A stretch of 64,000 bases of DNA, from positions 1 to 64,000 of the IMG/VR virus record IMGVR_UViG_3300010365_001248; one strand, given 5' to 3'. Source of the stretch: a virus. Taxonomy: Duplodnaviria; Caudoviricetes. Position 1 is the stretch's first letter, and every line of letters starts with the position of its first letter. Positions 30,013-64,000 of the stretch are shown here, one piece after another. Made by a program: the position numbers and the translations under genes. The notes under the pieces were generated by a model. The model saw only the letters and a program-made list of their open reading frames with translations, was not told where the DNA came from and made no database searches.

Positions 30013-31547
30013 TTTTGAAAATTTGATTCATAACATATTAAAACATCTAATAATCAGAAATGAATTTTTTGGTAAATATATGAGTAATTTTCAATATTTT
30101 GAAAATACAATCATAAAACAACCAGTAGATTATTTGGTGGATGAATTAGGTTATGTTAAGTGTTATGTAAATACAAATTATTCTAAAGAGAATATTATAG
30201 ATGCATTAAAACATGTAGCTACACATCTAATTGTAGATCCAATACCTGAAATAGAACCAGTATCGGAGTATCAAAAATATTGTGCAAATCAATCTTTTGA
30301 TGCTACAACTGAATCTCGTTATTGGCATGGACTTCCATTATGTAAACCTACTAGTTATTACTATAGAAGAATGCTAGATCCTGATTATAAAGAAGGAGGA
30401 GAACGTTCTTTAAGAGAATTAGATCCTAGTTTTGTTTTACTTTTGGAACAAGTAAAATCAAATCCAGAAAAATATAGAGATCAAATTAATTGGCATTTGC
30501 AGTGGCTTTCTTTGCAAGGAATGCCAAAACCAGTATTGTCTGTAGAAATAATACAATTTGCCAAGGAAAAACTAAAAATGGTAGCAGAAACTACTGCAAA
30601 ATCTGCAGGAACTTTGCCAGGTGGACTTTCAGAATTTTTTGTATTTAAAAAGGAACCTGCTAAATTTAAATGGCAAAATCTTGTAAGAAAACATTTGGGT
30701 TCTAATCCAGCAGAAACTTTTAGATCAACTCATAGAAAAGAATCTAATCGTTATGTAGGTGGAGCTGGACATACTAGAGAAAAGAATCCTAGTATTTTAG
30801 TTCTTCTTGATACTTCTGGTTCTATTGATAGAAAAGAATTCCAAGAATTCTTTAGAGAAATTGACACAATGCATAAAAGAAATTATGATATTTCTATAGC
30901 AGAATTTGATGGCAATTTTGAAAATGTCTATAAATATGATAGAAAAAATAATAAAATAGAAGTACACGGTCGTGGAGGTAAAAGAATTTTGTGCCTCCTA
31001 TAATAGAAATATTATATAAAAAATTGCTTAAATTGCGGGAAGTTCCTTAGAGATCTTGGTACTAATACAAGATAGTAATATACTTGTAGGTGGGACGTAA
31101 TTAATCTCAGTATAGTAAAAAGTCAAGATATTGGATAATCCGCAGCAAAATTTCTTTAATATTTATGAATAAAAAATATTCTTTTAATGAAAAGTATTTT
31201 GAAGTAATTGATAATGAAAAAAAGATATTTTTATAAAACATATTAAAGAAAGATGTTCAGAGACTATAATAGCACAACTTCGAAAAGAAAATTTCTTTTA
31301 AAGTTGAATGGATAGTCCAGCTTATTTTGAAAGAAATAAGGTTATGACAAATCTTAAAGCGATGGTCGATTATTGGAATCTTCATTATAAAGAAGTAGCC
31401 GCAGGAATATTATTTACTGATGGAGTAGACGATATAAAGAATGTTGCTAAACCTAGAGGTAATTTTATGTGGGTTATTTCTTCAGATGGTTACCAAGAAG
31501 ATGTTTATCCAGGTAAAACTCTTTTTATTCCAAAAGATAATAATTAA
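30002..31547 (+). CDS. DUF2201-like/vWA domain protein (MoxR partner), spliced 30002-30979 + 31347-31547, 392 aa
   Basis: MIDAS motif LLDTSGSI; splicing restores GRGG|TN and adds FTDG. Confidence 0.85.
30980..31346 (+). mobile_element. Group I intron 1 (vWA gene)
   Basis: 5' exon ends in U and intron ends in G. IGS TTTGTGCCTCC pairs both exons. Core elements AATTGCGGGAA, AATCCGCAGC, CAGAGACTA, ATAGTCC. Confidence 0.92.
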
Positions 31548-31605
31548 TTAAATATTTAATTTAAGTCTAGTTTTTTAAACTAGACTTTTTTTATTTTATA
31601 TTACA

Positions 31606-31833
31606 ATGACAACAAAAAAATCGCAGATTGATTGGGTAAAATTTAATTCAGAAATGTTTACTTACAAAGAAATTGTTATTCGTTTAAAACAAGGTTGGGA
31701 ATTTTCTAAAATTCTTCGTTATTGTAATCTTTCTGTACCTGAATTGAAAACTCGAATGAAAAATCTCAAAAATTATCGTAATAATATTTTTGAATTAGTA
31801 AAAACCCAATTTGAAATGCAAAATGCTGATTAA
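31606..31833 (+). CDS. Hypothetical protein
   Basis: ORF track. Confidence 0.6.
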   Translation: MTTKKSQIDWVKFNSEMFTYKEIVIRLKQGWEFSKILRYCNLSVPELKTRMKNLKNYRNNIFELVKTQFEMQNAD

Positions 31834-32512
31834 TTATTCTGATATTCTTCCTATCGGATCAACTAATCATTATTGCGGATTTGGATTTCCTACAAATTGT
31901 TATACAGATATTCCTTTATTAGATTTTATAAAAGAAATCATAAAAACTTCTCCTGATTATTATTTAAAGTCTTCACATTACGGTCCTTATATTTTGGATA
32001 GAAATGCGTACAGAGTACGAGGATTATTATATAATTCTTTTTATAAAAATCAACTTTACTTTGTACATAATGATTATCAAAAAATGAGTGAACAATTAGG
32101 ATCAGGAGAAATAGTATCTAAAGGAGATTTTTATATAATTCCTAAAGAATTATTACATAATAATGATAATTTTCGTTTAGAAACAGAAGTATTATATTTA
32201 AACTCTAAAGAAAATCCAGATTTAACTTTAGATATTATTTTAAAAATAATTCCCTATTTACAGGCTCCAGATGTTGGAACAAATATAGTAGGGTATTTAA
32301 TGTTAAAATCTTATAACTGGATAGAATATCCTAATGTAATTTATACTTTATTACAGCAGTTTCCTAATTATTTGGGAGATTTGATGGCTTCTCCTCAAAT
32401 AGGAGATATGCTTTGTTTTGTAATAAGTGATAAATATACAAAAAGTTCTTATGCAAAAGAAAAACAATTATTAAGTGATTTATTAAAGTATTTACAAAAA
32501 TTTAAAAGATGA
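31811..32512 (+). CDS. Hypothetical protein
   Basis: ORF track (start may be 31823). Confidence 0.7.
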   Translation: MKCKMLINYSDILPIGSTNHYCGFGFPTNCYTDIPLLDFIKEIIKTSPDYYLKSSHYGPYILDRNAYRVRGLLYNSFYKNQLYFVHNDYQKMSEQLGSGEIVSKGDFYIIPKELLHNNDNFRLETEVLYLNSKENPDLTLDIILKIIPYLQAPDVGTNIVGYLMLKSYNWIEYPNVIYTLLQQFPNYLGDLMASPQIGDMLCFVISDKYTKSSYAKEKQLLSDLLKYLQKFKR

Positions 32513-34528
32513 ATCTAGAACAAGTAAAATCCATAACAAATAGAATTATGGATGTAAATCGAAAGTTAGCAGATTTAGGTGAACCAAAAATTCCTATTAA
32601 TTTTATAGGTATGGCAGGTGTGGGTAAATGTGATTTGCCGTCTTATTGAGTAATTAATAAGATTATCATTGGGCAAAAACGGTGAAGACTGTGATGTTAA
32701 TACCGTGGTAAGTTTTTTCATTACGAAAGGGAAAAAACCACCGTAACGCGTAGAAGGTGAATAAATATAATCCTTCCAAGAGTGTCCGACTCCTAATTTT
32801 TAGGATGAATATGTACGCTGAGCTATAGAGAAAAAGAATCTATAGAAGTATAGATAAAAAGCTATACGATAACAAAACTGAAAACGAGCAGCCTAATGCA
32901 AGTAGCTGAAGAAAGAGGTTGTCATATTGAAACAGTTGTCTTGTCGCAGCTTGAAGAGGTAGGTGATGAACTATAAATGTCACCTAAATTAAAAACTCTG
33001 TGAATCTGGGAAAATCATCGTTATTATATGACAACCCTAATCCAAGCCTTATAGAAATATATTGAAGGATCAACGACTAGAATTAGTAGCCTCAGCAAGT
33101 GGTGTTGGAGGTAAACATTCCACGAGTGCAGAGAATTTTCCTATATATACCAATATTTAGTGGAAAATTAAGAGATAGTCTGAACTATATATAATACATA
33201 AATTATAGAATTAAAGGATAAAGAGCCTTTAAGATAACACAATTGATTACAGGAATGCCAGTTAAATTTTATAAACTTATTGATCCTCAAGGACAAGAAG
33301 TTGAAATGGCAGAAAGTGTTGTTCCTACACTTTTAAATTCAGGATATACTATTTGTCCTAATTGCGAACCAGTTACTTCTTTTGCAAAACCAGCTTGGGT
33401 GCCAGAAGATCGAGATCAAGAGTTTATTTTACTACTTGATGATTTTACCCGTAAAAATTAATTATTAAAATTTAGGAAGCTGCGGGTGTAAAACTCTGTG
33501 AATCTGGGAAACCCTTTATAATAAAATAAAGGCAACCCTAATCCAAGCTTTGTAGAAATACACTGAAGGATCAACGACTAGATTTAGTAATCTGACCAGG
33601 TGGTGCTGAAGATGAAAAATCCACGAGTGCAGAGCAATTATTTAAACATACCAATGTTAAACGATAATTGGTGAGATAGTCTGAACAATACATATATCTA
33701 AAAGTATTGAATTAAAGGATAAAGAGCCTTTAAGATAACAATTTGTGCAATAAAACATTCCTTCAAGCAATTATGCAATTGTTGCAATTTGGTAGTTATG
33801 GTACTTGGAGATTGCCTAAATATACTACAATTCTACTTTCTTCTAATCCAGAAGATGGTATGTACGATGTAACTGAAATTGATCCAGCTTTAAGATCTAG
33901 AATGATGAATTTTGTTGTAGATTTTGATATTAAGTTATGGGCTAAATGGGCTGAATCTAAAAATAAAAATGGTCAACTAATTAATTTTGCTCTTTGGAAT
34001 CAAAAAATGTTCCAAACAGCTAATCATTCTATTAATGCTAGAAACTATTCTATGTTTATAGATGCATTGATGGGAATTAAATTGGACACTAAAAATATGC
34101 CTGAAATTATATTAATGGCACAAGGAATTTTTGGTGAAGAACTTTCTATTGCAGAAGATCTTAGAATGTTTATAGATCAGCAACTAGATAAATTGCCAAC
34201 TCCTAACGATGTCATTACTAAATCTTGGGATGAATTGGAACCAATGCTAACAGATATTCTTTATAAAAATGAAGGTTATCGTTCAGATATTGGTTTCCTA
34301 TTAACCGTTCGTTTTTCTAATTATCTTGAAGAATATTTCAAGAATAACAAAGAAAAGAAAAAAGGTGAAAAAATTGAAAAAAGATTAGTTGAGTTGTTAA
34401 CTGCTAAAAAACCTTTATTGCAAGAAAATGGTTTATTGGAAATTGTTAAAACTCTAATAACTAAGTTTGCAGCAAAATGTCCAACTTTAGTAGCAAATCC
34501 AATTATTGCTTCAAAATTATTAAATTAA
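32509..34528 (+). CDS. MoxR-like AAA+ ATPase, spliced 32509-32625 + 32881-32967 + 33246-33452 + 33746-34528, 397 aa
   Basis: Splicing restores Walker A GMAGVG|KTS, EVGD|ITGMP and Walker B LLLDDFTR|CN; SSNP and DPALRSR are in exon 4. Confidence 0.9.
32626..32880 (+). mobile_element. Group I intron 2 (MoxR Walker A), variant-P7 family
   Basis: GGT|...AACTG|AAA; IGS TTTGCC; P7 GCGTA/TACGC. Confidence 0.9.
32968..33245 (+). mobile_element. Group I intron 3 (MoxR)
   Basis: IGS AATGTCACCT pairs AGGTGAT|ATT; P7 GACTA/TAGTC; terminal G. Confidence 0.9.
33453..33745 (+). mobile_element. Group I intron 4 (MoxR), close relative of intron 3
   Basis: IGS GCGGGT pairs ACCCGT; long blocks identical to intron 3. 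Confidence 0.9.
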
Positions 34529-34530
34529 TT

Positions 34531-34869: not shown

Positions 34870-34946
34870 TATGGTTTATTTAATTATTTATATTTGTTTA
34901 ATTTTTGGTTTGCTTATTTATTTTAAGCAAACCGCTTTAATTTTTA

Positions 34947-36686: not shown

Positions 36687-38475
36687 TGACTAGGGATGAA
36701 CGTCAACAACTCGTAATTAAACACTGGATTGCTACAAAAGGAAAAGGAACTTGTGAACTTCCTACTGGGTTGTATTATTTTAAATATATGAAAAAATTTA
36801 TTGATTATAAAAATATAGTAATGAATATTCTAAAGAAAATGGATTAAATTTAATAAAATATCTTTATAATAATAGTTCTATCTACTTAGAAAGAAAATAT
36901 AATTTATTTAAATTTTTTCAAAAAGGCAGCCGTTCTGTAAAGGAATTTACAGAATTATTATCGGGCAATATCGGGGGAAAGCCTATATAGGAAAATCCCG
37001 AGATAAATTTAGAAATTAAAAAATCTAAATCATTGTACAGCGTAGAAGGTGAAACTTATGAAAAATAAATGTAAATATCAAATAAAATTAAAAGACTTTC
37101 CTTATTATTGTTGTAATGCACAAAAGTATTGTCCAGCAATAATATGTCCTTTAAATTATAAAGATTGTGAAGTTTATAAGAATATAATCCTTCCAAGAGT
37201 GTCCGATATCCCAACTGAAATAAGTGGATAAACAGGTACGCGGAGCTTATAAGTAATTATAAGAAGTATGGGATAAAAAGCCCATGCGGTAACAAAACTG
37301 TTGGTAAAACTAGAGTAGCTTTAAAAATAATTGCTTTATTACAAGCAAAAAAGCCTCTAATTTCAATTAAAATACTTGTTCCGACTAATACATTAAAACT
37401 TCAATGGGAAAAAGAAATAGAGGCTTTTAAATTAAAAAAAGATACTATTTCTGTTGAAGTTATGATGGGTTCTTCCCAAAAGCAATCTGAATGTGATTTA
37501 TTAATTTTAGATGAATGTCATCGTTGTCTTTCAGAACATTTATACGCAGCTTTTACTAATATTAAATTTAGATTTGTATTAGGATTAACTGCAACGCTTG
37601 AACGTCTAGATGGTAGACATTTATTAATAGATCAATATGCTCCAATTTGTGATAGTGTTACTATTCAAGAAGCCCTACAAGAAGGGTGGCTTGCTCCATA
37701 TAAAGAATATCTTGTATTAATTGATGTAGATGATATTCAAGTATTTAAAGATTTAAATAAACAATTTACTTCAGTATTTGAATTTTTTAATATGGATTTT
37801 AATTTAGCTATGTCATGTGTAGGTAAAAAAGGTTATTATAATCGTATAAAATTAAGAGATGAAATGCTGCCAAATAATGCTACTCAAAAACAAAAATCAG
37901 ATACTCTTAAACTGATTCAATTAAAAGTAGCTCAATTTATGAGAATTCTTCAAAAAAGAAAATCATTTATAGCAAATCATCCTAAAAAGATTGAAATAGC
38001 TAAACGAATAATAGCAGCACGTTCTAATAAAAAAATTATTACTTTTTGTAAAACAGTTAAAATGGCTGAAGCTATATCAGATAAATATGTTTATACAGGA
38101 GATAAAAGTGTCAAAAAGAATAAACAAATTTTAGAGGAATTTAATAAACAAACTTCTGGAGTATTATCTACAAGTAAAATGGCTCAAGAGGGGCTTGATT
38201 GTCCTGATTTATCTGTAGGTATTTGTTTAGATGTAGATTCAAGTAAAATTAAAGCTAAACAAATATTAGGAAGGGTAATTCGTAAATATAAAGACAAACA
38301 AGCTGAATTTTTTACTATAGTAATTAATAATTGTGTTGAAGTGCAATGGTGGCAAAAAAGTCACACAGGTGCTCCAAATACTATTAAAATTGATGAAGAA
38401 GGTTTAGATCAAGTTTTGAAAGGAGAAACTCCTAGAGAAATTAAAAATCTTCAAAATTATCAATTTAGATGGTGA
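36686..38475 (+). CDS. SF2 (DExH) helicase, spliced 36686-36770 + 37301-38475, 419 aa
   Basis: Splicing restores LPTGFGKT; DECH, GLTAT, EGLD.P and QILGRVIR motifs. Confidence 0.92.
36771..37300 (+). mobile_element. Group I intron 5 (helicase Walker A), variant-P7 family, with HEG remnant and Cys-rich cargo ORF
   Basis: Core shared with intron 2 (TCGGGCAATATCGG, GCGTAGAAGGTGAA, CCTTCCAAGAGTGTCCG, GTACGC); ends AACAAAACTG. Confidence 0.9.
37058..37231 (+). CDS. Intron-encoded 57-aa Cys-rich peptide
   Basis: MKNKCKYQIKLKDFPYYCCNAQKYCPAIICPLNYKDCEVYK... inserted in an intron loop. Confidence 0.45.
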   Translation: MKNKCKYQIKLKDFPYYCCNAQKYCPAIICPLNYKDCEVYKNIILPRVSDIPTEISG

Positions 38476-39199: not shown

Positions 39200-40904
39200 A
39201 TGATTTCTGATGAACTTTTAAAAGAAATAGATAGAGGTAGAGAGGGTTTAAATCAAGGTACTACAACTGGTCTAGATAAATTAGATGATTTAACTGGAGG
39301 AAATTTACCTAATAACTTTATTGTAATTTTAGCTCAAAGCGGAGTAGGTAGTGTCTTACATATAAAATGCCGTTCCTATAAAGGAATTTTAGGAATTATT
39401 ACAAACCAAAAACGGGGAACTAAGTAAGAAGAATCCCGTGGTAAATATAGAAATTAAAAAGTCTATATCACCGTAGAGCGTAGGAATTGAACCTATTAAT
39501 ATAGAATAAAATATTCCCAAGAGTGGTTTGCATCCCAACTGAAAGAAGTGGATGAATAGGTACGCCGAGCTGTATTGTAAAATACAGAAGTTAAGATAAA
39601 AAGCTTAACGATAACACAACTGAAATCTTCCTTAATGTTATATTCATATTTTTATAAAGCTTTAAGAACCCATGAAAATGATGATAACTATTTTTGTTAT
39701 TTGTTTAGTTTAGAAATGTCTGCTACAATGGTACTAGGTAAAGTAATTAGTACCTATCTTTATGAGGAATTTAATGTTAGACTTTCTATAAATGATATTT
39801 TTTCAAGAAAAAAAGATTATACTCTTTCTGACGAAAATTATAATTTAGTCCTTAAAGGTATTGAATGGATTAAAAAAATGGAATCTAAATTTATTATATT
39901 TGATAAATCTCTTAATGCAGAAATTCTTTATACTTTATTATTAAAAGAATTAGAAAAAAGAGGATCTTTTCAAGAAACTGAAAATAGAAAAATTTATATT
40001 CCAAATAATCCTAATTTACTTTTTAATGTAATAATAGATCATATTTCTTTAGTTATGCCTTCTAGAGGTAGAGATTTAAAAAGAGAAATAGATTTAATTA
40101 CAGCTTATTTAGTTACATTGAGAAATATGACTAAATTAAGTCCTATTATTGTACAACAAGTAAATAGAGAACAATCTACAATGGAGAGGCGTAAGCAAGG
40201 GTTGTCGGATAGGAGGGTCCCTTGGATTTTAAAAAACAAAAATCATTTTGTATCTTTAATTAAACCTTATATTATTCCATCCATGCTTTATAAAATTCAA
40301 TAAAAATGTCCGAATAAAATTCCGTTAAACGGAGAAACTCCTAACAAGGACAACTCCGTGCTAAATTTTGAAGAAATTCAAATAAATGCCTAAAGACTAG
40401 AGATGATGCTTAACAAGTAAAGTTGAAGCTATAAAATTCTCCACGAAAGCGGGACACTGTTTATAGTAATATTTGAGAAAATATGAAATAAATTAAAGAT
40501 ATAGTCTGATCTATATAGTAATATATAGAATTATAGGATAAAGAGCCTATAAGATAACAAAAATGGTACGCCAATCCGATGCAGCTGATTCTGCAGATCC
40601 TACAAAAGCAGCTGAAGTTGTTATAGCTGTATTTAGTCCTAAAAGAGAAAAATTAAATAACTATGTAGGTTATGATGTTTCTGTATTAGATGATAAATTA
40701 AGAGCTATTCAATTACTCAAAGGAAGATATGGTATTGCAGATGTTGCTATAGCTTGTTGTTTTTGGGGAGATATTAATTATTGGCGTGAATTGCCAAAAG
40801 CTGAACATATTCGAGATTATACTAATTATCTAGAACCAAATTTTATTCCTGAACCTATTGAAACTGAATCTATTAAAATTGATATAAATAATTTTACTTT
40901 ATGA
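39200..40904 (+). CDS. dnaB: DnaB-like replicative helicase, spliced 39200-39349 + 39623-40210 + 40566-40904, 358 aa
   Basis: TTGL..LD, AQSGVG|KS, FSLEM, IIDHISLV, QQVNR, SD|VRQSD and LKGRYG motifs. Confidence 0.9.
39350..39622 (+). mobile_element. Group I intron 6 (DnaB Walker A), variant-P7 family
   Basis: GGT|...CAACTG|AAA; P7 GCGTA/TACGC. Confidence 0.9.
40211..40565 (+). mobile_element. Group I intron 7 (DnaB) with LAGLIDADG C-terminal remnant
   Basis: IGS GTCCGA pairs TCGGAT; P7 GACTA/TAGTC; the 5' loop encodes FVSLIKPYIIPSMLYKI. Confidence 0.88.
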
Positions 40905-41185: not shown

Positions 41186-43357
41186 TGGCAATTACACTAC
41201 CTAAAACAAAACTTCCTGCACTTACTCAAGATCCTAAAAATCTAATTATTTTCGGTTTGCCTAAGGTTACCAGCCGTGCCTAAAAGGGATTTTAGGTATT
41301 ATAACTGAGTAAAAACGGTGGATGCTAAAAATTTTTCTTTTTACTATACAAAAAGTTGGAAAAAAATTATAAACTTGAATAGATTTTATTAAAAATAATT
41401 TATTTTAAGTTTATGAAAATTAATCGTTTTAAATATTCATTAAAAGATATAAAAATATTTGCAGATTATTATAAAAATAATCATACTTTATTAGAAACTG
41501 CAAAATATTTTAATATTAATTATAAAACTATGATAAATAGTTTTATTAGATTAGGGTATTATAAACCTACTAGAAAACAATTAAATAGAAAATATACTAT
41601 TTTGCATGAAGATTATTTTAGTAAAATAGATTCTCATGAAAAAGCTTATTTCTTAGGATTATTAATGTCTGATGGTTATATAGCTACAGATACTTATAGT
41701 AAAATTATGGGAATTACTTTACAATTGCAAGATGAATATATTTTAGAATATTTAAAACAAGCTATTAATCCAAATTCTAAATTACATTATTATAAAAATT
41801 CTGTTAAATTTAGAATTAATAGTACTAAAATATACAATGATTTAAAAACTTTAAATTTTTCTGAATCTAAATCAAATAAAGAATTTCATATACCAAATAT
41901 AAATAAAGAATTTTATAATTCTTTTATAGCTGGTTATTTTGATGGAGATGGATGTATTACTTTAAAAAAATCAGGTTACACAGTATGTTCTATTATATCT
42001 AATTCTAAATTAATATTAGAAGATATTCAAAAAATATTAACTGATAATAATATTTTAACAACTTTAAGAATAGATAGACCTGCTAAAAATAATAGACAAG
42101 CTTTGTATATTTTAGCTATTAATAGATTAAAAGAACAAAAAAAATTTGGAGAATTTATTTATAAAAATACTCCTATTTATTTAATTAGAAAGAAAGAAAA
42201 ATTCATGCAAATACCGTGCTAAATCTATAAATTGCGAAAGGTTATAGATCAGTGTAACGCATAGAGAGTGAATAAATATAATCTCTCCACGAGTACTCGG
42301 TATCTAGAACAGATAAAAATATATGCTGAACTATGAAGAAATTCATAGAAATACAGATAAAAAACTGTATGATAACAAAATTGTGGCAAAACAACTGCAC
42401 TTTCTACACTAGAAAATAATTTAATTATTGATACAGAAAATGGATCAGATTATGTAGAAGCTTTAAAAGTTAAAGCAACTAATATTAAAGAATTGCAAGA
42501 AATTTGTAAAGCAATTAAAGAAGCAGGAAATCCTTATAAATTTATTACAATTGATACTGTTACGGCAATTGAAGAAATGGCAAAACCATTGGCAATCAAA
42601 TATTATAGAGATTCTCCAATGTTTTCTGAAAAATATGCTCAAGTTACTGAACCTCAAGCACTTCCAAATGGAAGCGGGTGGCAATGGTGGCGACAAGCCA
42701 TTGAAAAATTGATAGATATGGTAGCTCAATGTACACCTAATTTAATTATTTGTGGACATGTTAAAGATACTAAACTTGATGAAAATACCTCAGGTTCTGT
42801 AAAAGATCTTGATTTGGCAGGTAAAAAATAGTAAAGTATTTTGCCGTCCTTAAGAGTGATCTTAAGGATCATGACGGGGCAATATCGGTGAAGGCTAAAA
42901 GTTGGATTAAAGATAATATAAATATTAAATTTAAAACAACTCATGTTAATACCGAGATAATTAATGATTTAAAAAGTCATTAACATCGTAACGCATAGAA
43001 AGTGAACCTATATTATAGAATATAATCTTTCCACGAGTGTCCTGCTCTAAATGAAAATTTAGATGAAAATATATGCTGAACTTATAAGAAATTATAAGAA
43101 CTATGAGATAAAAAACTTATAGGGTAACAAAATTGAAAACTAAAAGAGTTCTTTCAGCTAAATCAGACGCTATCGCTTTTTGTTTCAGAGACGATGATGG
43201 AAATTTGTGTTTACAATTTGGTAGTAATGGTGAAATTTTAACAGGAGCTCGTCCTGCTCATCTTGCTGGTAAAACTATTGTAGTTGCTGAAAAGAATGAA
43301 GATGGTACATTTATTTCTCATTGGGAACGTATTTATCCATCTTTGAATGAGAAATGA
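41185..43357 (+). CDS. AAA_24/Sak4-like P-loop ATPase, spliced 41185-41267 + 42384-42822 + 43136-43357, 247 aa
   Basis: Splicing restores FGLPKVGKTT; LIIDTENG, ITIDTVT, IICGH and DLAG|KTK motifs. Confidence 0.9.
41268..42383 (+). mobile_element. Group I intron 8 (ATPase Walker A), variant-P7 family, with intact homing endonuclease
   Basis: IGS GCCT pairs AGGT; P7 GCATA/TATGC; ends GATAACAAAATTG. Confidence 0.92.
41413..42222 (+). CDS. LAGLIDADG homing endonuclease (double motif, N-terminal HTH)
   Basis: AYFLGLLMSDGYI and FIAGYFDGDGCI motifs; located inside intron 8. Confidence 0.93.
   Translation: MKINRFKYSLKDIKIFADYYKNNHTLLETAKYFNINYKTMINSFIRLGYYKPTRKQLNRKYTILHEDYFSKIDSHEKAYFLGLLMSDGYIATDTYSKIMGITLQLQDEYILEYLKQAINPNSKLHYYKNSVKFRINSTKIYNDLKTLNFSESKSNKEFHIPNINKEFYNSFIAGYFDGDGCITLKKSGYTVCSIISNSKLILEDIQKILTDNNILTTLRIDRPAKNNRQALYILAINRLKEQKKFGEFIYKNTPIYLIRKKEKFMQIPC
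42823..43135 (+). mobile_element. Group I intron 9 (ATPase), variant-P7 family
   Basis: GGT|...AATTG|AAA; IGS TTTTGCC; P7 GCATA/TATGC. Confidence 0.9.
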
Positions 43358-45704: not shown

Positions 45705-46060
45705 ATAAAGAACTTGAAAAAAGACTTTTTGAAACTCCTTCAACTGAAATTGAAATGTTAACTGCAACTGCTTATAATAAAGTTATGAGAGAAGTAGTAG
45801 TTAATGAAGATTCAGATGAAAGAAAACTTTGTGCAATGGCAGGTAGTTAGATTTATAGAATCAAAGATAGTATTCCTGCTATTGAATATCCTGATGTAGA
45901 TAGAGCCAATGAGGCTCCTTAAGCAGAGCCTCCCAGTAATAACTAATTGATATAGGTATTGGTCGATTTACTGTTAATGGAGATACTATTATTTATGAAA
46001 ATGCAGATTTTACACGATTTGGTTTTGCTACAATAGGATTACCAATTCGTCCTGTTAAAC

Positions 46061-46088
46061 AAGGTCAGTCTTAAGACTGACCTTTTTT
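46061..46088 (+). terminator. Intrinsic terminator
   Basis: AAGGTCAGTC-TTAA-GACTGACCTT followed by a T-run. Confidence 0.85.
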
Positions 46089-46099
46089 ATTTTATATAA

Positions 46100-48194: not shown

Positions 48195-49479
48195 AATTAG
48201 ATGATATTAAATTAATTCCTTTAATGGATACTTTAAGATTACAAAAAATTTCAGATGAAGTTTATTTTTCTGAAAAATATTCATCTTATATTAGTAATTC
48301 TCGTTTAGGATTACTAAATCCATTACAGGATGGGACTCCTGAAAAATTTTTTCAAGGATTTGTAAATCAGGGATATAACCCTTCTTTCGAGTTAGGTAGA
48401 TGAAAATTTTTATAGTATAACTGCCGTCTTTATGAGTAATTATAAAGATTATAACAGGGCAATATCGGTGAATTCTGAAATTGAAAATACCGAGATAACT
48501 TTTGGAATAGCGAAAGGTTCAAAAGCATCGTAGAGCATAGGAAATGAATAAATATAATTTTCCCAAGAGTGTCCTGCTCCTTATATATTAAGGATGAAAA
48601 TATATGCCGAACTATAAAGAATAACAATTTATAGAAATATAGATAAAAAGCTATATGATAACAAAATTGAGTAGAACCCATGAATTAATACTCCAGCCTG
48701 AATACTTTGAATTGGCTCCTGATTTAATGCGACCAAGTGCTAAATTAGGAGCTATTGCGGATAAATTATATCCCTATTTTATTAAAAATACTATAACAGA
48801 TGATCTAGTAACAAAATTTTGTTTGGAAATAGATTATTATGTTAATCAATTAACTCCTAATAGAATTCAAAGTATTAAAGATACTTGTAATGAGTATTGG
48901 AAAAGAAGACAACAGTATGAAGCTTCTCATGAAACATCTAAAATAATTCAATATTGTGATGCTAAATTGTTAAGTACTGTACAAAGTTGTGTTGGTAATT
49001 TAAATAATCATCCACAAGTTAAATCTTTATTACACCCTGAAGGTATACTAGAAACTCCAATATCTGAATGTGAACAAGCCATTCTTTTGGATATAAAAGC
49101 AGAATTACCTAATGGAAAAAATATTATACTAAAACTAAAAGCAAAACTAGATAATTATACTATAGATAAAGAAGCTAATATAGTTACTGTTAATGATGTT
49201 AAAACTTATAGAACTGATTTAATTATGAACTGTGAAGCTTTTCATTATCATCGCGAGATAGGGTTGTATCTCTATTTATTATCAAAATGTTGTGAAAAAT
49301 TTTATAATATGAAAGATTTTACAATGAAAGGTAATTATCTAGGTGTTCAAACTCAATTTCCTTTTAGAGCTTGTGTTTTACCTGTAAAACAACAAGATTT
49401 TAAAAAAGGATTAATTGAAATGGATAAATTATTAAAATATGCTGCTTATTTAATAGGATATAAAAATTATAAATTCTAA
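48191..49479 (+). CDS. PD-(D/E)XK exonuclease-like protein, spliced 48191-48397 + 48670-49479, 338 aa
   Basis: ISNSRL, ELG|SRTHE, EQ...KAKLD...DVKT and Y..EIGLY motifs. Confidence 0.85.
48398..48669 (+). mobile_element. Group I intron 10 (nuclease), variant-P7 family
   Basis: IGS ACTGCC pairs GGT|AGT; P7 GCATA/TATGC. Confidence 0.9.
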
Positions 49480-53514: not shown

Positions 53515-56500
53515 AACTGTTATAAATAAAAAGAGAGAAGAAAAAATATTTGATATAAATAAAATTCATATAGCTATTCGTAAAAGTGCTGATAGAATTT
53601 TAGTTACTCTAAATGATTCAGATTGTATTAAAATTTCAGATGAAGTTATTAATATGATTGATACTGAAAAAATAGAAGTTTCTAAATTGCATAATATAGT
53701 TGAACAAGCTCTTGAAAAAACTGGTTTTAATAAAGTAGCAGATTCTTATAGACAATATCGAAATTATAAATTAGATCTCCAAAAAACAAAAGAAACGGCT
53801 AATAATGATATTCAAGCTACTTTTATGAGTATTATTAATGCTGTTAATAATGATATTACTAGAGAAAATGCAAATATGAATTCAGATTCTCCTGCAGGTA
53901 TGATGATGAAATTTGCAAGTGAATCAACTAAACCTTTTGTAAGTAAATATCTTTTGTCTGAAGATGTTTTACTTGCAGAATCTTTAAATTATTTACATAT
54001 TCATGATAAAGATTACTATCCAACTAAAAGTTTGACTTGTATTCAGCACCCTTTAGATAGAATTCTTGAAAAAGGATTTAAAGCGGGGCATGGAGAAGCT
54101 AGAGGAGCTAAAAGAATTGAAACTGCTAGTATTTTAGCAGCTATTTCAATGGAAACTGTACAAAATGAAATGCATAAATAATACTGTGCATACTATTAGA
54201 AATAATAGGTAAAAATAAAAATAACGTGAACTTGTTTATCAGCAAGGTGTGAAAGAAACCTTTAGGGTTATATAGGAAATGATATATTTATTCTTTTGCT
54301 AACAGGGGAAGACACGTCCAAGTTTATCCTGTGCCAAGTACTAGTTACCATAAAAGTATTAATAAAAACTAGTAACTAGTAAAGGTCAAGAGACTATCGA
54401 AAAGTTATATTTTGCATAAGAAAATAAACACTTAGTAGAGTAGGGTAGAGATTGATACTATCCGAAGTGCGTTACAACTTAACATTTGAAGGTGAAGTTG
54501 ATGATATAGTCCGTCCTAAATTTATATTTAGGAAGGGTGGACAAGCAATTCCAGCTTTTGATTTTTATATGGCACCTTATGTAAGAAAAACATTTAATGA
54601 AGAAATTCTCAAAATTAAAAATTTTATGTTTGATTCAAATATTAATTGGGAGAATTTAATGAATATTAAATTGAAAGATTATATAAAGAAGCCTTTAACT
54701 GATTGTAAAGATTTGTCAGAAAAAATCATACAACAAGCTATAAATAATACAGTAGATAGAGTTCATCAAGCTATGGAATCTTTTATTCATAATATGAATT
54801 CTATTCATTCTAGAGGAGGTAAAATATGATTGCCTCCCAAATATAGTAATATATTTGTAAAAAATCCCGTAAAATCGGTGAAGTCTAAAAATATTAGGAT
54901 TCCAATAATATTCAAGATAATACCGAGGTAAGTTCTAAGATTGCGAAAGGCTTGGAAACACCGTAGAGCATAGTGGGTGAATAAATATAATCCCGCCAAG
55001 AGTATGGGACCCCAAATATATTTGGGTGAAAATGTATGCCGAACTATAAAGAAATTTATAGAAATAAAGGATAAAAAACCTTTATGATAACAAAATTGAA
55101 TCAAGTTGTATTTAGTAGTATTAATTATGGTACTGATACTTCAGCTGAAGGTAGGTGTGTAATTAGAGAACTATTAATATCTACGGAACAAGGAGTAGGA
55201 AATAATGCTACAGCTATTTTTCCGATACAAATTTGGAAAACAAAAGAAGGTGTATCAATATTACCTACTGATCCTAATTATGATTTATATAAATTCGCTT
55301 GTAAAGTTAGTGCACGCAGATTTTTTCCAAATTTTTTAAATCTAGATGCTACTTTTAACAAAGATGATGCTTGGGATATTAATGATCCTAAACGTTATGA
55401 ACATGAAGTAGCTGCAATGGGTAAGTGAAAATGCAGCCCATTTAAAACCTTTTGAACCGTGCTAACGGGTGTGGAATAAACGATTTAGTTTAGATTAATA
55501 GTCTATTAATTATTCTGCTAACTGCTAGGTCCAATAATAGCAGTTCTAAAATTATTGGATGAGGCAGTGCCAAATCGCAAAATGCGAAAGTGTGAATCGA
55601 CTATCCCTGATGAGTGTAAGGGAGTAGAATTGGAGATAAGCACCAATTCGAAGCGGAAGGCTCTAGAAATAGAGAACATATAGTCAGTACTAATGGTGAC
55701 ATTAGATTAATACGTGTAGAACCAGAGTTTATGAAAATGCTTTTGGACCTAAAACTTCAATAGGTAGAGGTAATATTAGTTTTTCTACTATGAATTTAGT
55801 TAAATTAGCTATTGAGGTTTCAATTCAAGATGAATTTTTATATAAAGAAAATAATAATTGGAAATTTAATGAAAATAAAAATTCAATTGAAGATAAAAAT
55901 AGAAGGCTAGAAGCATTTTTAATTAAATTATCAAATTTAGTAACTATTACTACTAAACAATTACATCAACGTTTTGAATTTCAAAAAACTGCTTTGAAAA
56001 AACAATTTCCTTTATTAATGCAAGGACTTTGGAATGGTTCTGAATCTTTAAAAGATACAGATACTATCGAATCAGTTATTAATTCAGGAACCCTCGGTGT
56101 GGGCTTTATAGGTTTGGCTGAAACTTTGGTAGCTTTAACTGGAAAACATCATGGAGAATCTGAAGAAAGTCAAAAGTTTGGTTTAACTATAATTAAAAGT
56201 ATTAAAGATCAATGCGTTGAAGCTAGAGAAAAATATAAGCATAATTATGCTTGTTTAGCTACTCCAGCTGAAGGTTTATCTGGTAAATTTACTAAAATAG
56301 ATAAAAAAGAATTTGGAATTATTCCTGGAGTTATTGACAAAGAATATTATACTAATTCTAATCATGTTCCTGTAGAATATAAATGTAGTATTGAGCACAA
56401 ATTTAAAATCGAAGGACCTTATCATGAATTAATTACAGCTGGTCACATCGGATATTGTGAGATTGATGGAGATTTAACTAAAAATCCAGAAGCTATTATG

Positions 56501-56764
56501 GATATAGTTCAATTAGGTAGAAAATATAATATGGGATATATTTCTATTAATCATATACAATTGAGATGTCCTTATTGTAATTATGAATCTAACGAAAATT
56601 TAAATATTACAGAATGTCCGCATGATCATCATAAATTAGATATTTTGCAAAGAATTACTGGATATTTAGTAGGATCTACTGATCGTTGGAATTCAGGAAA
56701 ATTAGATGAATTACATAGAAGAATTAATCATAATTTATATGAAAATACTTCAAATAATTCCTAA
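53501..56764 (+). CDS. nrdD: Anaerobic (class III) ribonucleotide reductase, spliced 53501-54175 + 54536-54820 + 55099-55422 + 55715-56764, 777 aa
   Basis: ATP-cone, ENAN, HIHDKD, EMH|GGQ, SRGG|NQVVFSS, MG|CRT, TPAEGL, YYTNS and the RITGYL glycyl-radical loop. Confidence 0.96.
54176..54535 (+). mobile_element. Group I intron 11 (nrdD)
   Basis: IGS GTGCAT pairs ATGCAT; P7 AGAGACTA/ATAGTCC. Confidence 0.9.
54821..55098 (+). mobile_element. Group I intron 12 (nrdD), variant-P7 family
   Basis: IGS GATTGCCTCC pairs GGAGGT|AATC; P7 GCATA/TATGC. Confidence 0.92.
55423..55714 (+). mobile_element. Group I intron 13 (nrdD, just before the catalytic Cys codon)
   Basis: IGS GCAGCCCAT pairs ATGGGT|TGT; P7 GACTA/TAGTC. 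Confidence 0.9.
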
Positions 56765-58773: not shown

Positions 58774-59951
58774 TGAAACTAGTAACTAGAGATTCTAAAA
58801 ATAAAATTCGTGTTATTTATATTTCTTTGATAGAAGATATTAAAGATGTTTCTTATACTATTAAAAGAAGTAGTGGTCTACTAGAAGGAAAATTAATTAT
58901 ACAACCTGAGATTAAGATTACTAAAGGTAAAGTAAAACGTACTGTTTTTCAGCAAGCTGAACTTCAATTTAATAGTGAAGTTAAAAAGTTAAAAGACAAA
59001 GGATATAAAGAAATTTCTGTTAATTTATCTGTAGAAGAAATAGATAAGTTTTTAGGTCAAAATAAAACAGATTCAGAAGGTAATTATAAACCTATGCTTG
59101 CCAAAGCTTTAAAAGATTGTGATCAATCAAAAATTGATAATAAACAATGGTATATTTCTAGAAAAATAAATGGATTGAGATGTACTATTTGTAAACAAAA
59201 TGGTGTTTTACATGCTTTTGGTAGAGGTTCAAGTACTTATGATACTGCTATATCACATATTTTAAATCATCCTAAACTTATTGAATTCTTTGACAAAAAT
59301 CCTACTATTATTTTAGATGGAGAATGCTATAAACATGGTATTTATCTACAAGAAATTAGTGGTAAAATGAGGCAAGAATCTGAACAAATTCCTGAACTAG
59401 AATTTTATCTTTATGATGTTGTAGATCCTTCTAAAAAATTTACAGAAAGATTTAAACTTTTGCAACAAATTGAAAAGGATTTAGATTTATATTTTTTACC
59501 AGATAGAGAATGGAATGATAATGATTTAAAAATTCAAATTGTTCCTCAAGAACTTGTAAATAATTTAGATGAAATTAATGCTAAACATGATCAATTTGTT
59601 TCTGAAGGCTTTGAAGGAGCAGTTATTCGAGATCCAAATAGCTTGTATGTATGTGGCGGTAGAAATTTGTCCATGGTTAAAGTTAAACGATACTTGGATG
59701 ACTGTTTTACAGTTGTTGGAATACAACAAGGATTGCGTAAATATGATGATATGGTATTTGTTTTAAAAACTAAAGATAATTTATATTTTAATGCTAAACC
59801 TATGGGTAGTAGAGAATTAAAAATAGATTATACTGATAATTTTGAAACTAAATATAAAAATCATATTGGAGAATGTAAATTCTTTGAATATTCAAAAGAA
59901 AATATTCCTTGTCAACCTACGTTTATTTCTTTTAGATTTGATCTTGAATAA
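58773..59951 (+). CDS. ATP-dependent DNA ligase
   Basis: PMLA, K-I-N-G-L-R (KxDG variant), LDGE, YD, EGAVIR and KVK motifs. Confidence 0.92.
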   Translation: MKLVTRDSKNKIRVIYISLIEDIKDVSYTIKRSSGLLEGKLIIQPEIKITKGKVKRTVFQQAELQFNSEVKKLKDKGYKEISVNLSVEEIDKFLGQNKTDSEGNYKPMLAKALKDCDQSKIDNKQWYISRKINGLRCTICKQNGVLHAFGRGSSTYDTAISHILNHPKLIEFFDKNPTIILDGECYKHGIYLQEISGKMRQESEQIPELEFYLYDVVDPSKKFTERFKLLQQIEKDLDLYFLPDREWNDNDLKIQIVPQELVNNLDEINAKHDQFVSEGFEGAVIRDPNSLYVCGGRNLSMVKVKRYLDDCFTVVGIQQGLRKYDDMVFVLKTKDNLYFNAKPMGSRELKIDYTDNFETKYKNHIGECKFFEYSKENIPCQPTFISFRFDLE

Positions 59952-59961
59952 ATAATAATTT

Positions 59962-60213
59962 ATGAAAAATATAACCAATTTATCTAATACTTATAATAAT
60001 GTAATTAAATTAGCAGATGATCTTTCAAAATTTATTAAAGATTATCAACCACAAAATGCTAATGATTACTTTGATAAAGACTTAATGGTGACTCAACTTA
60101 ATATATTACACAGTCTTGCTTGTACTTTAGCTATGCGTATTAATATTAATAGTGTACAAGAAGAACCTGAAGAGGCACCTATTATGGATAATGAGCCTTC
60201 TGTAAATGATTAA
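59962..60213 (+). CDS. crAss001_48-like small protein
   Basis: KL..DL.KFI...LM..QL.I...L...LAMRI pattern. Confidence 0.55.
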   Translation: MKNITNLSNTYNNVIKLADDLSKFIKDYQPQNANDYFDKDLMVTQLNILHSLACTLAMRININSVQEEPEEAPIMDNEPSVND

Positions 60214-61054
60214 AAAAGTAATTTTTACAGACCATTCTAATGATATACTAGTAAAATATTTTCATGATATTAATAAATATCCTATTCTATCAAATGATGA
60301 AATTAATCAACTTATTCCGTCGGCACAAAAAGGTAATGAACAATCAATTGATTTAATATGTAAATCAGTACTCCGTTTTGTTGTAACTATTGCAAAACAG
60401 TTACAATATAAAGGAGTACCTTTAATGGATTTAATATCAGAAGGTAATTATGGTATTTTAACTGCTATTAAAAAATATAAAGTAGAAAAAGAAATACCTT
60501 TTATTTACTATGCTATTCATTGGATTAAACAAAAGATGTATATTGCTATTTATGGAACTAATAAATCTATACGTATTACTTTTGTACAAAATATGCGTTT
60601 AAATAAGATTATTAAAGTTTCAGCTAAATTTATGCAAGAACATCAACGTGAACCTTCTGCTGAAGAATTAGAAGAATTAACTGGATTTCCTTTAAAAGAA
60701 ATTAAGATTTTATTACCTTATTTAGATAAAGTCAATTCTTTAGATACTATAATTGAATCTAATGATTCTGAAACAACTTTAGGAGAATTATTACCAGGAG
60801 ATTATATTGAACAAGATACTGATTTACATAAAGAATATGTAAATAAAAAACTTTATAAAGTTTTGAATAAATTAACTTTAAGAGAAAAAGCTGTTATTTG
60901 TTTAATATATGGAATACAATGTCAACAAATGTATTTACCTGATATTGCTAAATTATTTGGAGTTTGTGAAGAACGCATTAGGCAAATTAAAGAAAAAGCT
61001 TTATACAGATTGAAAAAATATAAACGTTATTTTATCGAAATAAATTATGCGTAA
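60206..61054 (+). CDS. Sigma-70 family RNA polymerase sigma factor
   Basis: LRFVVTIAK, DLISEGNYG, YAIHWIKQ, REPSAEEL and ERIRQIKEKAL motifs. Confidence 0.93.
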   Translation: MIKKVIFTDHSNDILVKYFHDINKYPILSNDEINQLIPSAQKGNEQSIDLICKSVLRFVVTIAKQLQYKGVPLMDLISEGNYGILTAIKKYKVEKEIPFIYYAIHWIKQKMYIAIYGTNKSIRITFVQNMRLNKIIKVSAKFMQEHQREPSAEELEELTGFPLKEIKILLPYLDKVNSLDTIIESNDSETTLGELLPGDYIEQDTDLHKEYVNKKLYKVLNKLTLREKAVICLIYGIQCQQMYLPDIAKLFGVCEERIRQIKEKALYRLKKYKRYFIEINYA

Positions 61055-61307
61055 GAAAGTTTTAATGAAAGGTCGCTATGGATTGAAACACTATTTAGTT
61101 GTAGATGAAGAAGATCCTAATCTATATAAATTGCAAACTGATAAAAAAACTAGTTATGTTTCAACTATAGGAGATAATTTTGATGATCTAGTAGCTGTTG
61201 ATCCTGAAGGTGGTCCTTATATTTCAAAAGGTAGTAAATTACTTAATAAAATTATTTCTTCTATTTATCAGGATGAAGATGGAACTATTTTTATTAGATT
61301 AGAATGA
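61047..61307 (+). CDS. Hypothetical phage protein
   Basis: VDPEGGPYI motif. Confidence 0.7.
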   Translation: MRKKVLMKGRYGLKHYLVVDEEDPNLYKLQTDKKTSYVSTIGDNFDDLVAVDPEGGPYISKGSKLLNKIISSIYQDEDGTIFIRLE

Positions 61308-64000
61308 TTTACGCTATTTCAATTAATAAACCTCTTTACGATTGTGATGATATAAAATATATTTCTGTACAAGAAAGTATAGAAATATTGAATCAAATGT
61401 CTGTAATTCAAGTAGATAGCGAGACAAGTGGCTTAAATCTATACCTATCTAAACTTTTAACAGTTCAGTTAGGTAATGCTAAAGATCAAGTGGTAATTGA
61501 TACTCAGACAGTTGATATTAAACAATATAAATCTATTTTGGAAAGTAAAAAATTAATTCTTCATAATGCAAATTTTGATTTACAATTTTTGTATAAAGAA
61601 GGTATTATTCCAAGAAAGATTTATGATACTATGATTGCTGAACAAGTATTGTATTTAGGGTATCCTCCTGAACAAAAGAAATATAGTTTAGCTGATATTG
61701 CTCTATTTAGATTAAATAAAATAATGGATAAATCTATTAGAACAAATATTGCTAGACTAGGTTTTTGTGAAAGTGTAATACGCTATGGTGCAAAAGATGT
61801 TACTTTTCTAGAAGATATTGCTAAATCTCAAATAGCTGAAGCTCGTCAGAAAAAATGTGTAGATGCTATTATACTTGAATGTAAATTTGTACCTGCTATG
61901 GCTTATCTAGAATTTTGTGGAATTAAACTAGATGAAACAAAATGGAAAGCCAAAATGAAAAAAGATCAAACAGCTTTAAATGAATCTCAAGAAAAATTAA
62001 ATACTTGGTTACGAAATAAAGCTGCTAAAGATTCTAGGTTTAAAAAATTTATTCAGCAACAATTAAATTTATTTGGTTTTGAACCTGATATTTTATTAAA
62101 TTGGAATTCATCAGAACAAGTAGTAGAATTACTTAAATTACTTGGTTTTAATACTGAAGTTAAAGATAAAAAGACTGGAGAAACAAAAGATTCATGTCTT
62201 GAAAAAAATTTAGCTATTCAAAAAGGTATTGATGATGAATTTTTACAAATGTTTTTTGATTATAAAGGAGCTGTAAAAGTAGTATCTTCATTTGGTCAAA
62301 CTTTTTTAAATGCAATTAATCCTATTACGGGAAGATTGCACTTTCATTATAAATGTATAGGAACAGTTTCTAGTCGAATGTCTAGTGGTACAGGTAGAGA
62401 TGCTGAAATTGCTAGATATAAAGGACTTTTAGAGAAAGATTGTCCTAATCTAAATGGGCAACAATTACCTCATGATGCAGAAACTAGAGCTTGTTTCGTA
62501 TCTGAACCTGGAAATCTTTTCGTTTCGTGTGATTATTCGAGTTAAAAATTGACTTATAATTTAAACAAGATCAAATAATTAAATTATTTAATAAATTATA
62601 TTTAAATGCCCATGTATTTTTAAAAAGAAAATATATGAAATGGCTCGACTTTTATGAAAGTAAAAGAAATAAAATGGCTTAAACTGCGGGAACCAGAGGC
62701 AACTGCAATCCGCAACGAAACTTGTCCGCCTAAAAGGCAATTCCAAAGAGACAAGGACGCTCAGAGACTATAATAGCCACACCTAAGTATATTTATATAT
62801 ATGGTGAATGGATAGTCCAGCCTAGTCAGGCTGCAAGAAGGTTATATGCAAGCAGAAATATATGATGAACCTGTACTAAAAGAAATGTATCGTAATGGAT
62901 TAGATTCTCATAGTGTTAATGCTAAAATCTTTTTTAAAGACGAATTAAAAGATATTCCTATTGAAGATGTTAAAAAATTAAGACCAGATTTAAGATCTAA
63001 AGCTAAAGCTCCATTTTTTGCTCTTTCTTAATTGGTAAATTTGTCTTTTTGTTGTAAAAACAAAAAGTTATTACAGACTATTTAAATAAATTTTGTTTAA
63101 ATAGGAAAAAAACAAATTTTTGAGACTTATAGAAGTAATTCTATATGAAACATTGGGTGAATTGCTGGAAAGCTAAACATACTGTAAGTGCATGCCAATC
63201 AGCAGCTTAGTTAACGAAAAGCATAAAAGTAGTTAAAAAGTTCAACGACTAATCTTTGAGAAGCTTATCAATAAAAAGATCACGAGTGCCCAACTCCTTA
63301 ATAAAGGATGATGATATAGTCTGAGCTATATGGAAACATATAGAAATGTATTATAAACAAATACATGATAACATAACTGATGGAGGATCTGCTTCAACTT
63401 TAGTAACTTCTTTAGGTATTTCTAAAAAAGAAGCTCAGCAAATTGTAAATAACTATCAAGAAGGTTATAAAGCAACAATGGAATTTGCTAAAAGGGGAGA
63501 AGCTTTTGTCAAAAAATATGGATATATTTTAATTAATAAAATTACTGGTTTAAAACTATGGTGGTGGGATCATAAAAATTGGTTAGAAGAAGAATATTAT
63601 TTATGTGAACACCCTGAAGAAAGGCGATCTAAAAAATTTAGAACACACAATTCCGTATTAGCTCAATATAGTAGATATTCAAGAAATTATCCAAGTCAGG
63701 GTAAACAAAGACTGCCCTGGGTAAACTCCTTAAATTCGGTGAAAACTGAGATGTTAATACCGAGCCAAGTCTTTTAGTAATAAAAGAAAGGTGTAACGAC
63801 TAGTATATGGAATCCTTTTATAGGATAGTAAAATACCACGAAAAGGGAGATTATATTTTTACTTTTTGTAAAAATATATTAAGATATAGTCTGAACAATA
63901 ACGAAAAAGAAGTTATTGAATCTAAAGATAAAGAACTTTAGAGTTAACATATTTGAGTTCAGCTTCTATGACGAAAACAGCTGCTACAAATCTATTTAAT
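61304..64000 (+). CDS. polA: Family A DNA polymerase, spliced 61304-62542 + 62834-63029 + 63380-63702 + 63956->64000 (partial)
   Basis: Exonuclease motifs DSETSG, HNANFD, DTM and YGAKD. Motif A CDYSS|QE, motif B RSKAK..FALSYGG, and NYPSQG|SSA. Confidence 0.95.
62543..62833 (+). mobile_element. Group I intron 14 (polA motif A)
   Basis: IGS TGGCTCGA pairs TCGAGT|CA; core related to intron 1 (ACTGCGGGAA, CAGAGACTATAATAGC, GGATAGTCCAGC). Confidence 0.9.
63030..63379 (+). mobile_element. Group I intron 15 (polA motif B Tyr codon)
   Basis: T|AT junction restores Tyr; core GAATTGCTGGAA, AATCAGCAGC, CAACGACTA, GATATAGTC. Confidence 0.9.
63703..63955 (+). mobile_element. Group I intron 16 (polA)
   Basis: IGS ACTGCCCTG pairs CAGGGT|AGT; P7 GACTA/TAGTC. 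Confidence 0.9.

Follow-up and report, generated by a model that had tools for sequence, protein, structure and literature searches.

A 64,000-nucleotide stretch of phage DNA (hereafter the window: positions 1 to 64,000 of IMG/VR record IMGVR_UViG_3300010365_001248, Caudoviricetes) carries a replication module in which eight consecutive genes are very probably interrupted by sixteen group I introns, as judged by comparison of their sequences. The complete record of the virus comprises 163,912 base pairs (bp) with a G+C content of about 26%, and its family A DNA polymerase (PolA) has its nearest counterparts in crAss-like Bacteroides phages, e.g. crAss001 and DAC15, with identities of 41-43%. 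The phage is a large crAss-like gut phage of 164 kb, which from its size and gene content may belong to the Zeta group, a placement that its intron density fits. A megablast search of the stretch against phage records gave no match.

In the 30-64 kb region, gaps of about 250-1100 nucleotides (nt) interrupt the long reading frames of the plus strand. The introns assigned to sixteen of these gaps are 253-1116 nt long and account for 5875 of the 32,976 nt (17.8%) between the start of intron 1 and the end of intron 16; their local density is about one intron per 2 kb, the eight interrupted genes stand in a row, and a single gene holds up to four introns. The initial annotation had proposed sixteen introns in eight genes, and its count and both outer limits proved exact, intron 1 starting at 30980 and intron 16 ending at 63955. 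For these eight genes the number is a lower bound, since PolA has a fourth intron outside the window, and at least 17 introns lie within one 33.5-kb replication module. The gap at 45851-46099 was considered as an additional intron and rejected, as it ends in a GC hairpin followed by a T-run and joins no split gene.

To place the junctions, each boundary was set against uninterrupted homologues. A T precedes the intron in 16/16 cases and G is its last base in 16/16, so that the regularities first proposed for these gaps, namely a preceding U, a terminal G and restoration of the frame on removal, hold throughout the set. With the introns removed, eight open frames appear that are colinear with uninterrupted homologues giving full-length Pfam matches. 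Their lengths in amino acids (aa) are 392 for the VWA/DUF2201 gene, 397 for the AAA_5 ATPase, 419 for the SNF2 helicase, 358 for the DnaB-like helicase, 247 for the AAA_24 ATPase, 338 for a gene without assigned function, 777 for NrdD and 668 for PolA. The four NrdD pieces match Pfam profile positions 1-103, 103-154, 152-263 and 263-562, i.e. consecutive segments, and the PolA pieces behave likewise. An in-frame stop codon follows within 8 codons of the 5' splice site in 12 of the 16 introns, a proportion not clearly above expectation at 26% GC.

All sixteen introns lie on the plus strand and are described here in map order, with a caret marking the junction in the protein. Intron 1 (30980-31346, 367 nt) interrupts the VWA-like DUF2201 gene at HGRGG^TNLK, and the spliced length of 392 aa equals that of the uninterrupted alleles P0056, P0055 and P0066. 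The AAA_5 gene contains intron 2 (32626-32880, 255 nt) within its Walker A motif at GVG^KTS, intron 3 (32968-33245, 278 nt) at EEVGD^ITGMP and intron 4 (33453-33745, 293 nt) just 3' of its Walker B motif at LLLDDFTR^CNK; its spliced product is 99.0% identical to P0035 and 97.7% identical to P0026, both of which are uninterrupted. Intron 5 (36771-37300, 530 nt) splits motif I of the SNF2 helicase at PTG^FGKT, where the uninterrupted homologue in MT836666 reads TGFGKTR. Two introns interrupt the DnaB-like helicase gene: intron 6 (39350-39622, 273 nt) in Walker A at SGVG^KSS, a site through which allele P0091 reads straight and at which the MT836666 homologue abuts exactly (39349^39623), and intron 7 (40211-40565, 355 nt) at KQGLSD^VRQSD, where the uninterrupted allele P0086 (304 aa) has LYE in place of the LSD of this phage and the length of the MT836666 protein agrees. 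Intron 8 (41268-42383, 1116 nt) lies in Walker A of AAA_24 at LPKV^GKTT and intron 9 (42823-43135, 313 nt) further along the same gene at DLDLAG^KTKR; the spliced product is colinear with homologues of the same 247-aa length and is matched by the uninterrupted alleles P0162 and P0165. Intron 10 (48398-48669, 272 nt) interrupts the 338-aa gene at SFELG^SRTHE. Its uninterrupted allele P0113 (338 aa) is found on 22 contigs, and the MT835492 homologue abuts at 48397^48670; a search with the exon-exon junction pattern of intron 10 gave no match in viral contigs and four chance, unrelated matches in metagenome contigs.

NrdD, the ribonucleotide reductase, holds intron 11 (54176-54535, 360 nt) at NEMH^GGQAIP, intron 12 (54821-55098, 278 nt) at HSRGG^NQVVF and intron 13 (55423-55714, 292 nt) at AAMG^CRTR. 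In phage loci such as L001-L008 its four exon peptides join with single-base precision, and the alleles P0126, P0131 and P0135 (462 aa) read through the site of intron 13. Within the window PolA is interrupted by intron 14 (62543-62833, 291 nt) in motif A at DYSS^QEGY, intron 15 (63030-63379, 350 nt) in motif B at FFALS^YGGSA and intron 16 (63703-63955, 253 nt) in the QG motif at QG^SSAS. Uninterrupted alleles are available for each of these sites (P0152, P0155 and P0146 for intron 14, P0152 and P0155 for intron 15, P0152 for intron 16). The full 668 aa of PolA additionally require removal of intron 17, a 363-nt element just past the window (genome 64058-64420; L057:1058-1420) that lies in motif C, separates its D and E codons (MVHD^EMSCEYP) and matches Rfam family RF00028 with 30.7 bits over 64048-64384.

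Alignment thus places introns in Walker A of four ATPases (AAA_5 GVG^KT, SNF2 TG^FGKT, DnaB-like GVG^KS and AAA_24 KV^GKT, for introns 2, 5, 6 and 8), next to Walker B of AAA_5 (intron 4), in PolA motifs A, B and C (introns 14, 15 and 17) and in its QG motif (intron 16). Intron 13 stands directly 5' of a Cys codon whose aligned counterpart in Prevotella copri NrdD is Cys416, the cysteine that initiates the radical. Every catalytic position named in the initial annotation (four Walker A loops, a Walker B neighbour, PolA motifs A and B and the NrdD cysteine) is upheld by these alignments.

The gaps are also united by features of the group I fold. A search with group I covariance models, suggested at the outset as a check, succeeded for ten introns but left introns 10 and 13 unmatched. 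The ten RF00028 matches have E values from 1e-18 to 0.004, and two of them exceed the gathering score of 50, namely intron 15 (79.5 bits) and intron 3 (51.5 bits). They are followed by intron 7 (45.9 bits, E 1e-10), intron 4 (42.2 bits, E 9e-9), intron 16 (39.2 bits, E 9e-7), intron 14 (38.6 bits, E 1.4e-6), intron 11 (33.6 bits, E 2e-6), intron 12 (30.3 bits, E 2e-5), intron 1 (28.8 bits, E 1.5e-5) and intron 2 (23.6 bits, E 0.004), the E values from 1e-10 to 0.004 for these eight lower-scoring introns coming from narrow searches. Introns 5, 6, 8 and 9 were not listed by RF00028 in a 35-kb search, the sole search covering them.

By sequence similarity the introns are grouped into family A (introns 3, 4, 7 and 16, with intron 15 loosely attached), family B (seven members: introns 2, 5, 6, 8, 9, 10 and 12) and the pair of introns 1 and 14, while introns 11 and 13 each stand alone; a putative family C of introns 1, 11, 13 and 14 was discarded, as the likeness is limited to introns 1 and 14. 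Families A and B are related to each other by a common 3' hairpin and the tail GAUAACAAAAYUG. The 5' part of intron 11 resembles an intron at the same NrdD site in locus L013. As in the IA2 introns of phage T4 (td, nrdB and nrdD, the latter also called sunY), a P7.1/P7.2 insert is found between P7 and P3' in families A and B and in intron 13. Family A resembles the T4 td intron, and its member intron 3 is IA-like, the subgroup being read from the presence or absence of P7.1/P7.2.

Family B is seen by Rfam weakly or not at all, and its structure from P2 to P9.1, including the P3/P7 pseudoknot, was drawn by hand on five members. In these five sequences 91.9% of the cells are paired, versus about 44% (range 32-46%) when the partners are slid against each other; 38 of the 62 pairs show compensatory changes, P3 and P7 are 100% paired, and all six P3 pairs are compensatory. 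Six sequences outside the structure derivation (introns 5 and 8, this genome's two copies near 150 kb, and two MT835492 introns, those in SNF2 and DnaB) served as a held-out set, and all of them keep 6/6 pairs of P3 and 6/6 pairs of P7 with differing letters. The family-B P7 has the form G-bulge-GCRUA/UAYGC, which retains the bulge and the guanosine-binding G-C pair, whereas the second pair is C-G instead of the usual A-U. In intron 5 nhmmer matches the family-B core in two pieces. For intron 10, the covariation within family B argues for a group I assignment. Intron 13 can be drawn with a canonical core of P1 AAUGGGU/GCCCAUU, P3 UUCUGC/GCGGAA, P4 CUGCU/GGCAG and P7 GACUA/UAGUC, plus P7.1, P7.2, P8 and P9.

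Pairing of the internal guide sequences with the flanking exons is specific to each intron. At fixed guide positions, P1 averages 5.1 bp with the intron's own 5' exon versus 2.4 bp with the exons of other introns, and P10 averages 3.1 bp with its own 3' exon versus 1.0 bp with the others; each of these observed values was reached by none of 20000 permutations. The guide positions were chosen partly by their P1 match, which makes the P1 test partly dependent, and the P10 test is the more independent of the two. When P1 partners were sought across 160 nt without constraint, many spurious matches appeared, and fixed guide positions were used instead. P1 comprises 3-8 bp in the sixteen introns, with G opposite the exon U. 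Introns 1 and 12 both have P1 GGAGGU/GCCUCC and a P10 of 5 bp; the P1 helices of introns 7, 11 and 14 are UCGGAU/GUCCGA, AUGCAU/GUGCAU and UCGAGU/GCUCGA, those of introns 3, 4 and 16 reach 8, 7 and 7 bp (the last with a P10 of 4 bp), and intron 9 has P10 AAAA/UUUU. P10 amounts to just 0-1 bp in introns 4, 5, 6 and 15. The proposal that nearly all introns show a guide matching their own exons is therefore correct overall and weak for six family-B introns with a 3-bp P1. The guide lies unusually far from the 5' splice site in introns 7 (97 nt; 40211-40307) and 14 (100 nt; 62543-62642), and at a distance of about 100 nt the loop closed by P1 would be very long; the frame that enters intron 7 from upstream stays open for 31 codons through the stretch before the guide.

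Comparison with near-identical strains reveals extensive intron polymorphism. Uninterrupted or partly interrupted alleles at 96-99% protein identity were found for introns 1-4, 6-10 and 13-16, and clusters at 90% identity mix interrupted and uninterrupted forms of the VWA, AAA_5, DnaB-like, AAA_24, 338-aa, NrdD and PolA genes (AAA_24 alleles were collected by homologue search, those of the other genes by protein-cluster look-up). Among the AAA_5 alleles are intron-free forms, forms that have intron 2 alone or intron 4 alone, and other mixes, P0029 and P0030 being without intron 3 and P0031 and P0029 without intron 4. PolA alleles carry 0, 1, 2 or 3 of introns 14-16, and the AAA_24 allele P0161 has intron 9 present and intron 8 absent. 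At this empty site P0161 reads GLPKCGNTT where the others have GKTT, so that the Walker A lysine is replaced, a change that could be a sequencing variant or mark a damaged allele. The uninterrupted AAA_5 allele P0026 is found on contigs of up to 165 kb. On contigs of up to 165,372 bp, apparently representing one strain lineage, the VWA, AAA_5 and 338-aa genes are uninterrupted (introns 1-4 and 10 are absent), and in the same lineage SNF2 and NrdD are still interrupted by introns 5 and 13. Beyond these strains, the sites of introns 11, 12 and 13 are filled in 5, 2 and 7 of about 50 NrdD loci from other phages, often by inserts that are larger and unrelated, and most AAA_24 homologues are uninterrupted at 245-248 aa. 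The existence of uninterrupted alleles in near-identical phages implies that the introns are dispensable. Their sporadic presence at recurrent hot spots would be the signature of selfish homing elements. Where intron-plus and intron-minus alleles differ in amino acids, the differences are clustered at three junctions, those of introns 1, 7 and 8, and no such clustering was found at the junctions of introns 2, 3, 4, 10 and 14-16; these protein differences do not decide the mode of spread.

The only intact endonuclease gene of the set is an open reading frame (ORF) of 269 aa in intron 8 (41413-42222, plus strand), which matches Pfam LAGLIDADG_3 (1.2e-15) and, over residues 11-267, phrog_4645 'endonuclease' (4.4e-41). 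Intron 5 retains a LAGLIDADG remnant of about 58 codons at approximately 36814-36987, which is 58% identical to the C-terminal end of the LAGLIDADG gene carried by the SNF2 intron of MT835492. The other 14 introns contain no ORF of at least 60 aa with any family match. An intact endonuclease gene is thus present in 1 of 16, and the statement that 15 of the introns are without one is borne out. A Cys-rich ORF of 60 aa (37049-37231) was also noted in intron 5, in an insert of about 112 nt within the core, and is unlike every endonuclease family screened.

In the mechanism that we propose, the pre-mRNA of each gene would fold into a group I core; the P1 U.G pair would mark the point after which an external guanosine attacks, the terminal G would then take the place of this guanosine, and the exons, guided by P1 and P10, would be ligated, restoring eight genes of replication and nucleotide metabolism. 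All eight genes would then depend on splicing in this strain. The introns themselves are best described as probable selfish mobile elements, most of which would have lost their homing endonuclease gene, with one intact gene and one remnant left. Their placement in catalytic motifs would follow from two properties of such sites: i) conserved DNA is a good homing target, and ii) imprecise loss at these positions is expected to be lethal.

Several observations weigh against this reading. Splicing itself is deduced from the DNA. For introns 5, 11 and 12 there is no uninterrupted allele among the near-identical strains, and their junctions were placed by homologues of about 44-57% identity. The intron-less alleles are known here as proteins, and it is the size of the contigs that indicates a DNA rather than an RNA origin for these alleles. 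The exon side of P1 in the six weak family-B introns comprises only the 3 bp GGU/GCC, intron 10 escaped RF00028 even in a 301-nt search, and the structure of intron 13, likewise unmatched by RF00028, was drawn by hand and is without covariation support.

As to the mode of spread, family B may represent a lineage of ORF-less introns that spreads as RNA, through reverse splicing into any GGU-purine site, a possibility that we put forward tentatively. Family-B copies follow GGU at at least eight sites (seven in the window and one near 150 kb), four of which are P-loop Gly codons, and the 5' part of the guide is re-tuned in each copy to its own 3' exon, e.g. GAUU/AAUC, ACU/AGU and CCA/UGG. The SNF2 introns of MT835492 (L055:11059-12223) and of this phage (intron 5) are mutual closest relatives with 77-81% identity and LAGLIDADG sequence common to both. 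They are inserted 5 nt apart, each after GGU, the MT835492 site (TGFG^K) lying downstream of the site in this phage (TG^FGK) within the same P-loop. The shift between the SNF2 sites and the GGU preference fit reverse splicing, and they also fit nucleases acting in trans on similar P-loop DNA. Reverse-splicing spread has long been proposed and, to our knowledge, has never been caught in phages.

An alternative is that the introns, together with the LAGLIDADG enzyme or free-standing nucleases, persist as weapons, cutting intron-less alleles of co-infecting relatives and spreading flanking markers. Interference of this kind by intron endonucleases between co-infecting phages is described for phiKZ-like phages, and in the present case one intact intron-encoded endonuclease is found, intron-plus and intron-minus alleles coexist in the population, and the allele differences clustered where introns 1, 7 and 8 are inserted would fit co-conversion or target-site immunity. 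We nevertheless consider this explanation unlikely for the set, given that 15 of the 16 introns encode no nuclease, that no free-standing homing nuclease was identified in the screened part of the window, and that the remaining junctions compared, those of introns 2, 3, 4, 10 and 14-16, are free of clustered differences.

The initial annotation had gone further and suggested that splicing, which needs a guanosine cofactor and Mg2+, could act as a collective checkpoint on replication. In this view the introns would be kept since the joint splicing of many replication genes ties replication to guanosine nucleotide or Mg2+ supply or to the translational state of the host. It is true that in this strain none of the eight genes, among them those for the polymerase, two helicases and the ribonucleotide reductase, can do without splicing and that the introns sit in indispensable motifs; homing elements are, however, known to settle in conserved motifs, and no regulatory purpose is needed to explain it. 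Control exerted through many introns would require that the introns be kept, and they are not: near-identical strains carry intron-free alleles at 97-99% identity in many combinations, the sites are empty in most relatives, and related phages share no conserved intron set through which such a checkpoint could act. The suggestion is therefore not supported, and we regard it as very improbable. Cellular GTP is millimolar, whereas the guanosine Km of group I ribozymes is micromolar; with this roughly thousand-fold excess the cofactor should not be limiting. In favour of the checkpoint, splicing of the T4 introns reportedly declines under poor translation (Sandegren and Sjoberg 2007). This dependence on translation would be the only realistic link to physiology, and it is a side effect and no designed sensor. 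Finally, the view that the gaps are not introns, but intergenic spacers between truly split genes (which do exist in phages) or parts of decayed pseudogenes, is highly improbable, as the genes are split within P-loops and between catalytic residues that are direct neighbours, a T precedes and a G ends every gap whose removal always restores the frame, the group I core is conserved with covariation, and the guides are specific for both flanking exons.

The interpretation of the gaps as group I introns makes this phage a dense case of a habit already reported for crAss-like phages. [quoted passage not shown] The phage analyzed here resembles them in a size within 145-192 kb, in group I introns in core genes and in LAGLIDADG endonucleases; in contrast to the Zeta report, 15 of its 16 introns lack an endonuclease domain and would be missed by an approach that looks for such domains. 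The Jug jumbo phages of Bacteroides/Phocaeicola carry 18.5 small (~206 nt) ORF-less group I introns per genome, which were found by covariance models, split nrdD, terL and polymerase genes, and were confirmed to splice by metatranscriptome reads for 37 of 76 (PMC12880540). Jug phages are a different clade with genomes of 360-402 kb, whereas the local density is much higher in the present phage and its introns are known from sequence. As in T4, nucleotide-metabolism genes including nrdD are hit and the endonuclease genes are mobile or decayed, but T4 has three introns, one per gene, while up to four per gene and mostly ORF-less introns are found here. Multi-intron genes are known in other phages, such as orf142 of Staphylococcus phage Twort and the DNA polymerase genes of SPO1-like Bacillus phages and the T7-like phages PhiI and W31. 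These share with the present case several group I introns in one essential gene and PolA motifs as recurrent targets; fewer genes are affected per genome there, compared with eight here and with insertions into all three PolA catalytic motifs plus the QG motif.

Additional candidate introns are located elsewhere in the genome. Two further family-B introns were found far from the replication module, at genome positions 150220-150438 and 150952-151195, both on the minus strand (L061). The first of them follows ...ATTGGTGGT, a GGU site with the 5' exon end GGTGGT. Further RF00028 matches on the late-gene strand lie at 147393-147605 (minus strand, 82.2 bits), 131241-131378 (minus strand, 38.9 bits) and 131738-131769 (minus strand, 22.2 bits). 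In all, the genome probably contains considerably more than 20 group I introns. A relative of intron 17 occurs in MT835492 close to the corresponding place.

Exon 4 of NrdD (55715-56761) matches the structure of Prevotella copri NrdD (8p23, E 7e-124), and its closest phage relatives are about 57% identical. A search for SNF2 in those phages found nothing, which indicates that the NrdD relatives are not genome relatives, and a search for related loci with the SNF2 exon returned no relatives; the phage may have gained NrdD independently of the other genes of the module. Seven tRNA genes are clustered at 10781-12333 of the window (Rfam tRNA, 41-74 bits). Metatranscriptome runs hold 7-24% of the sampled words of the sequence, shares too small to infer habitat or expression.

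The understanding of group I introns itself is unchanged by these results, and the checkpoint, which would have been the exciting part, is unsupported. This work contributes exact intron coordinates and shows that ORF-less introns predominate in a crAss-like phage, that a single polymerase has four introns in its motifs, and that the introns are polymorphic between strains. Published counts for crAss-like phages used endonuclease domains, by which the intron load was undercounted. Gene callers break the eight genes into more than 24 fragments, and the coordinates reported here restore the full-length polymerase, helicases, ATPases and ribonucleotide reductase. The alleles with 0, 1, 2 or 3 introns at 97-99% identity form a naturally occurring series in which the gain and loss of introns, and their cost or benefit to a phage, can be studied.

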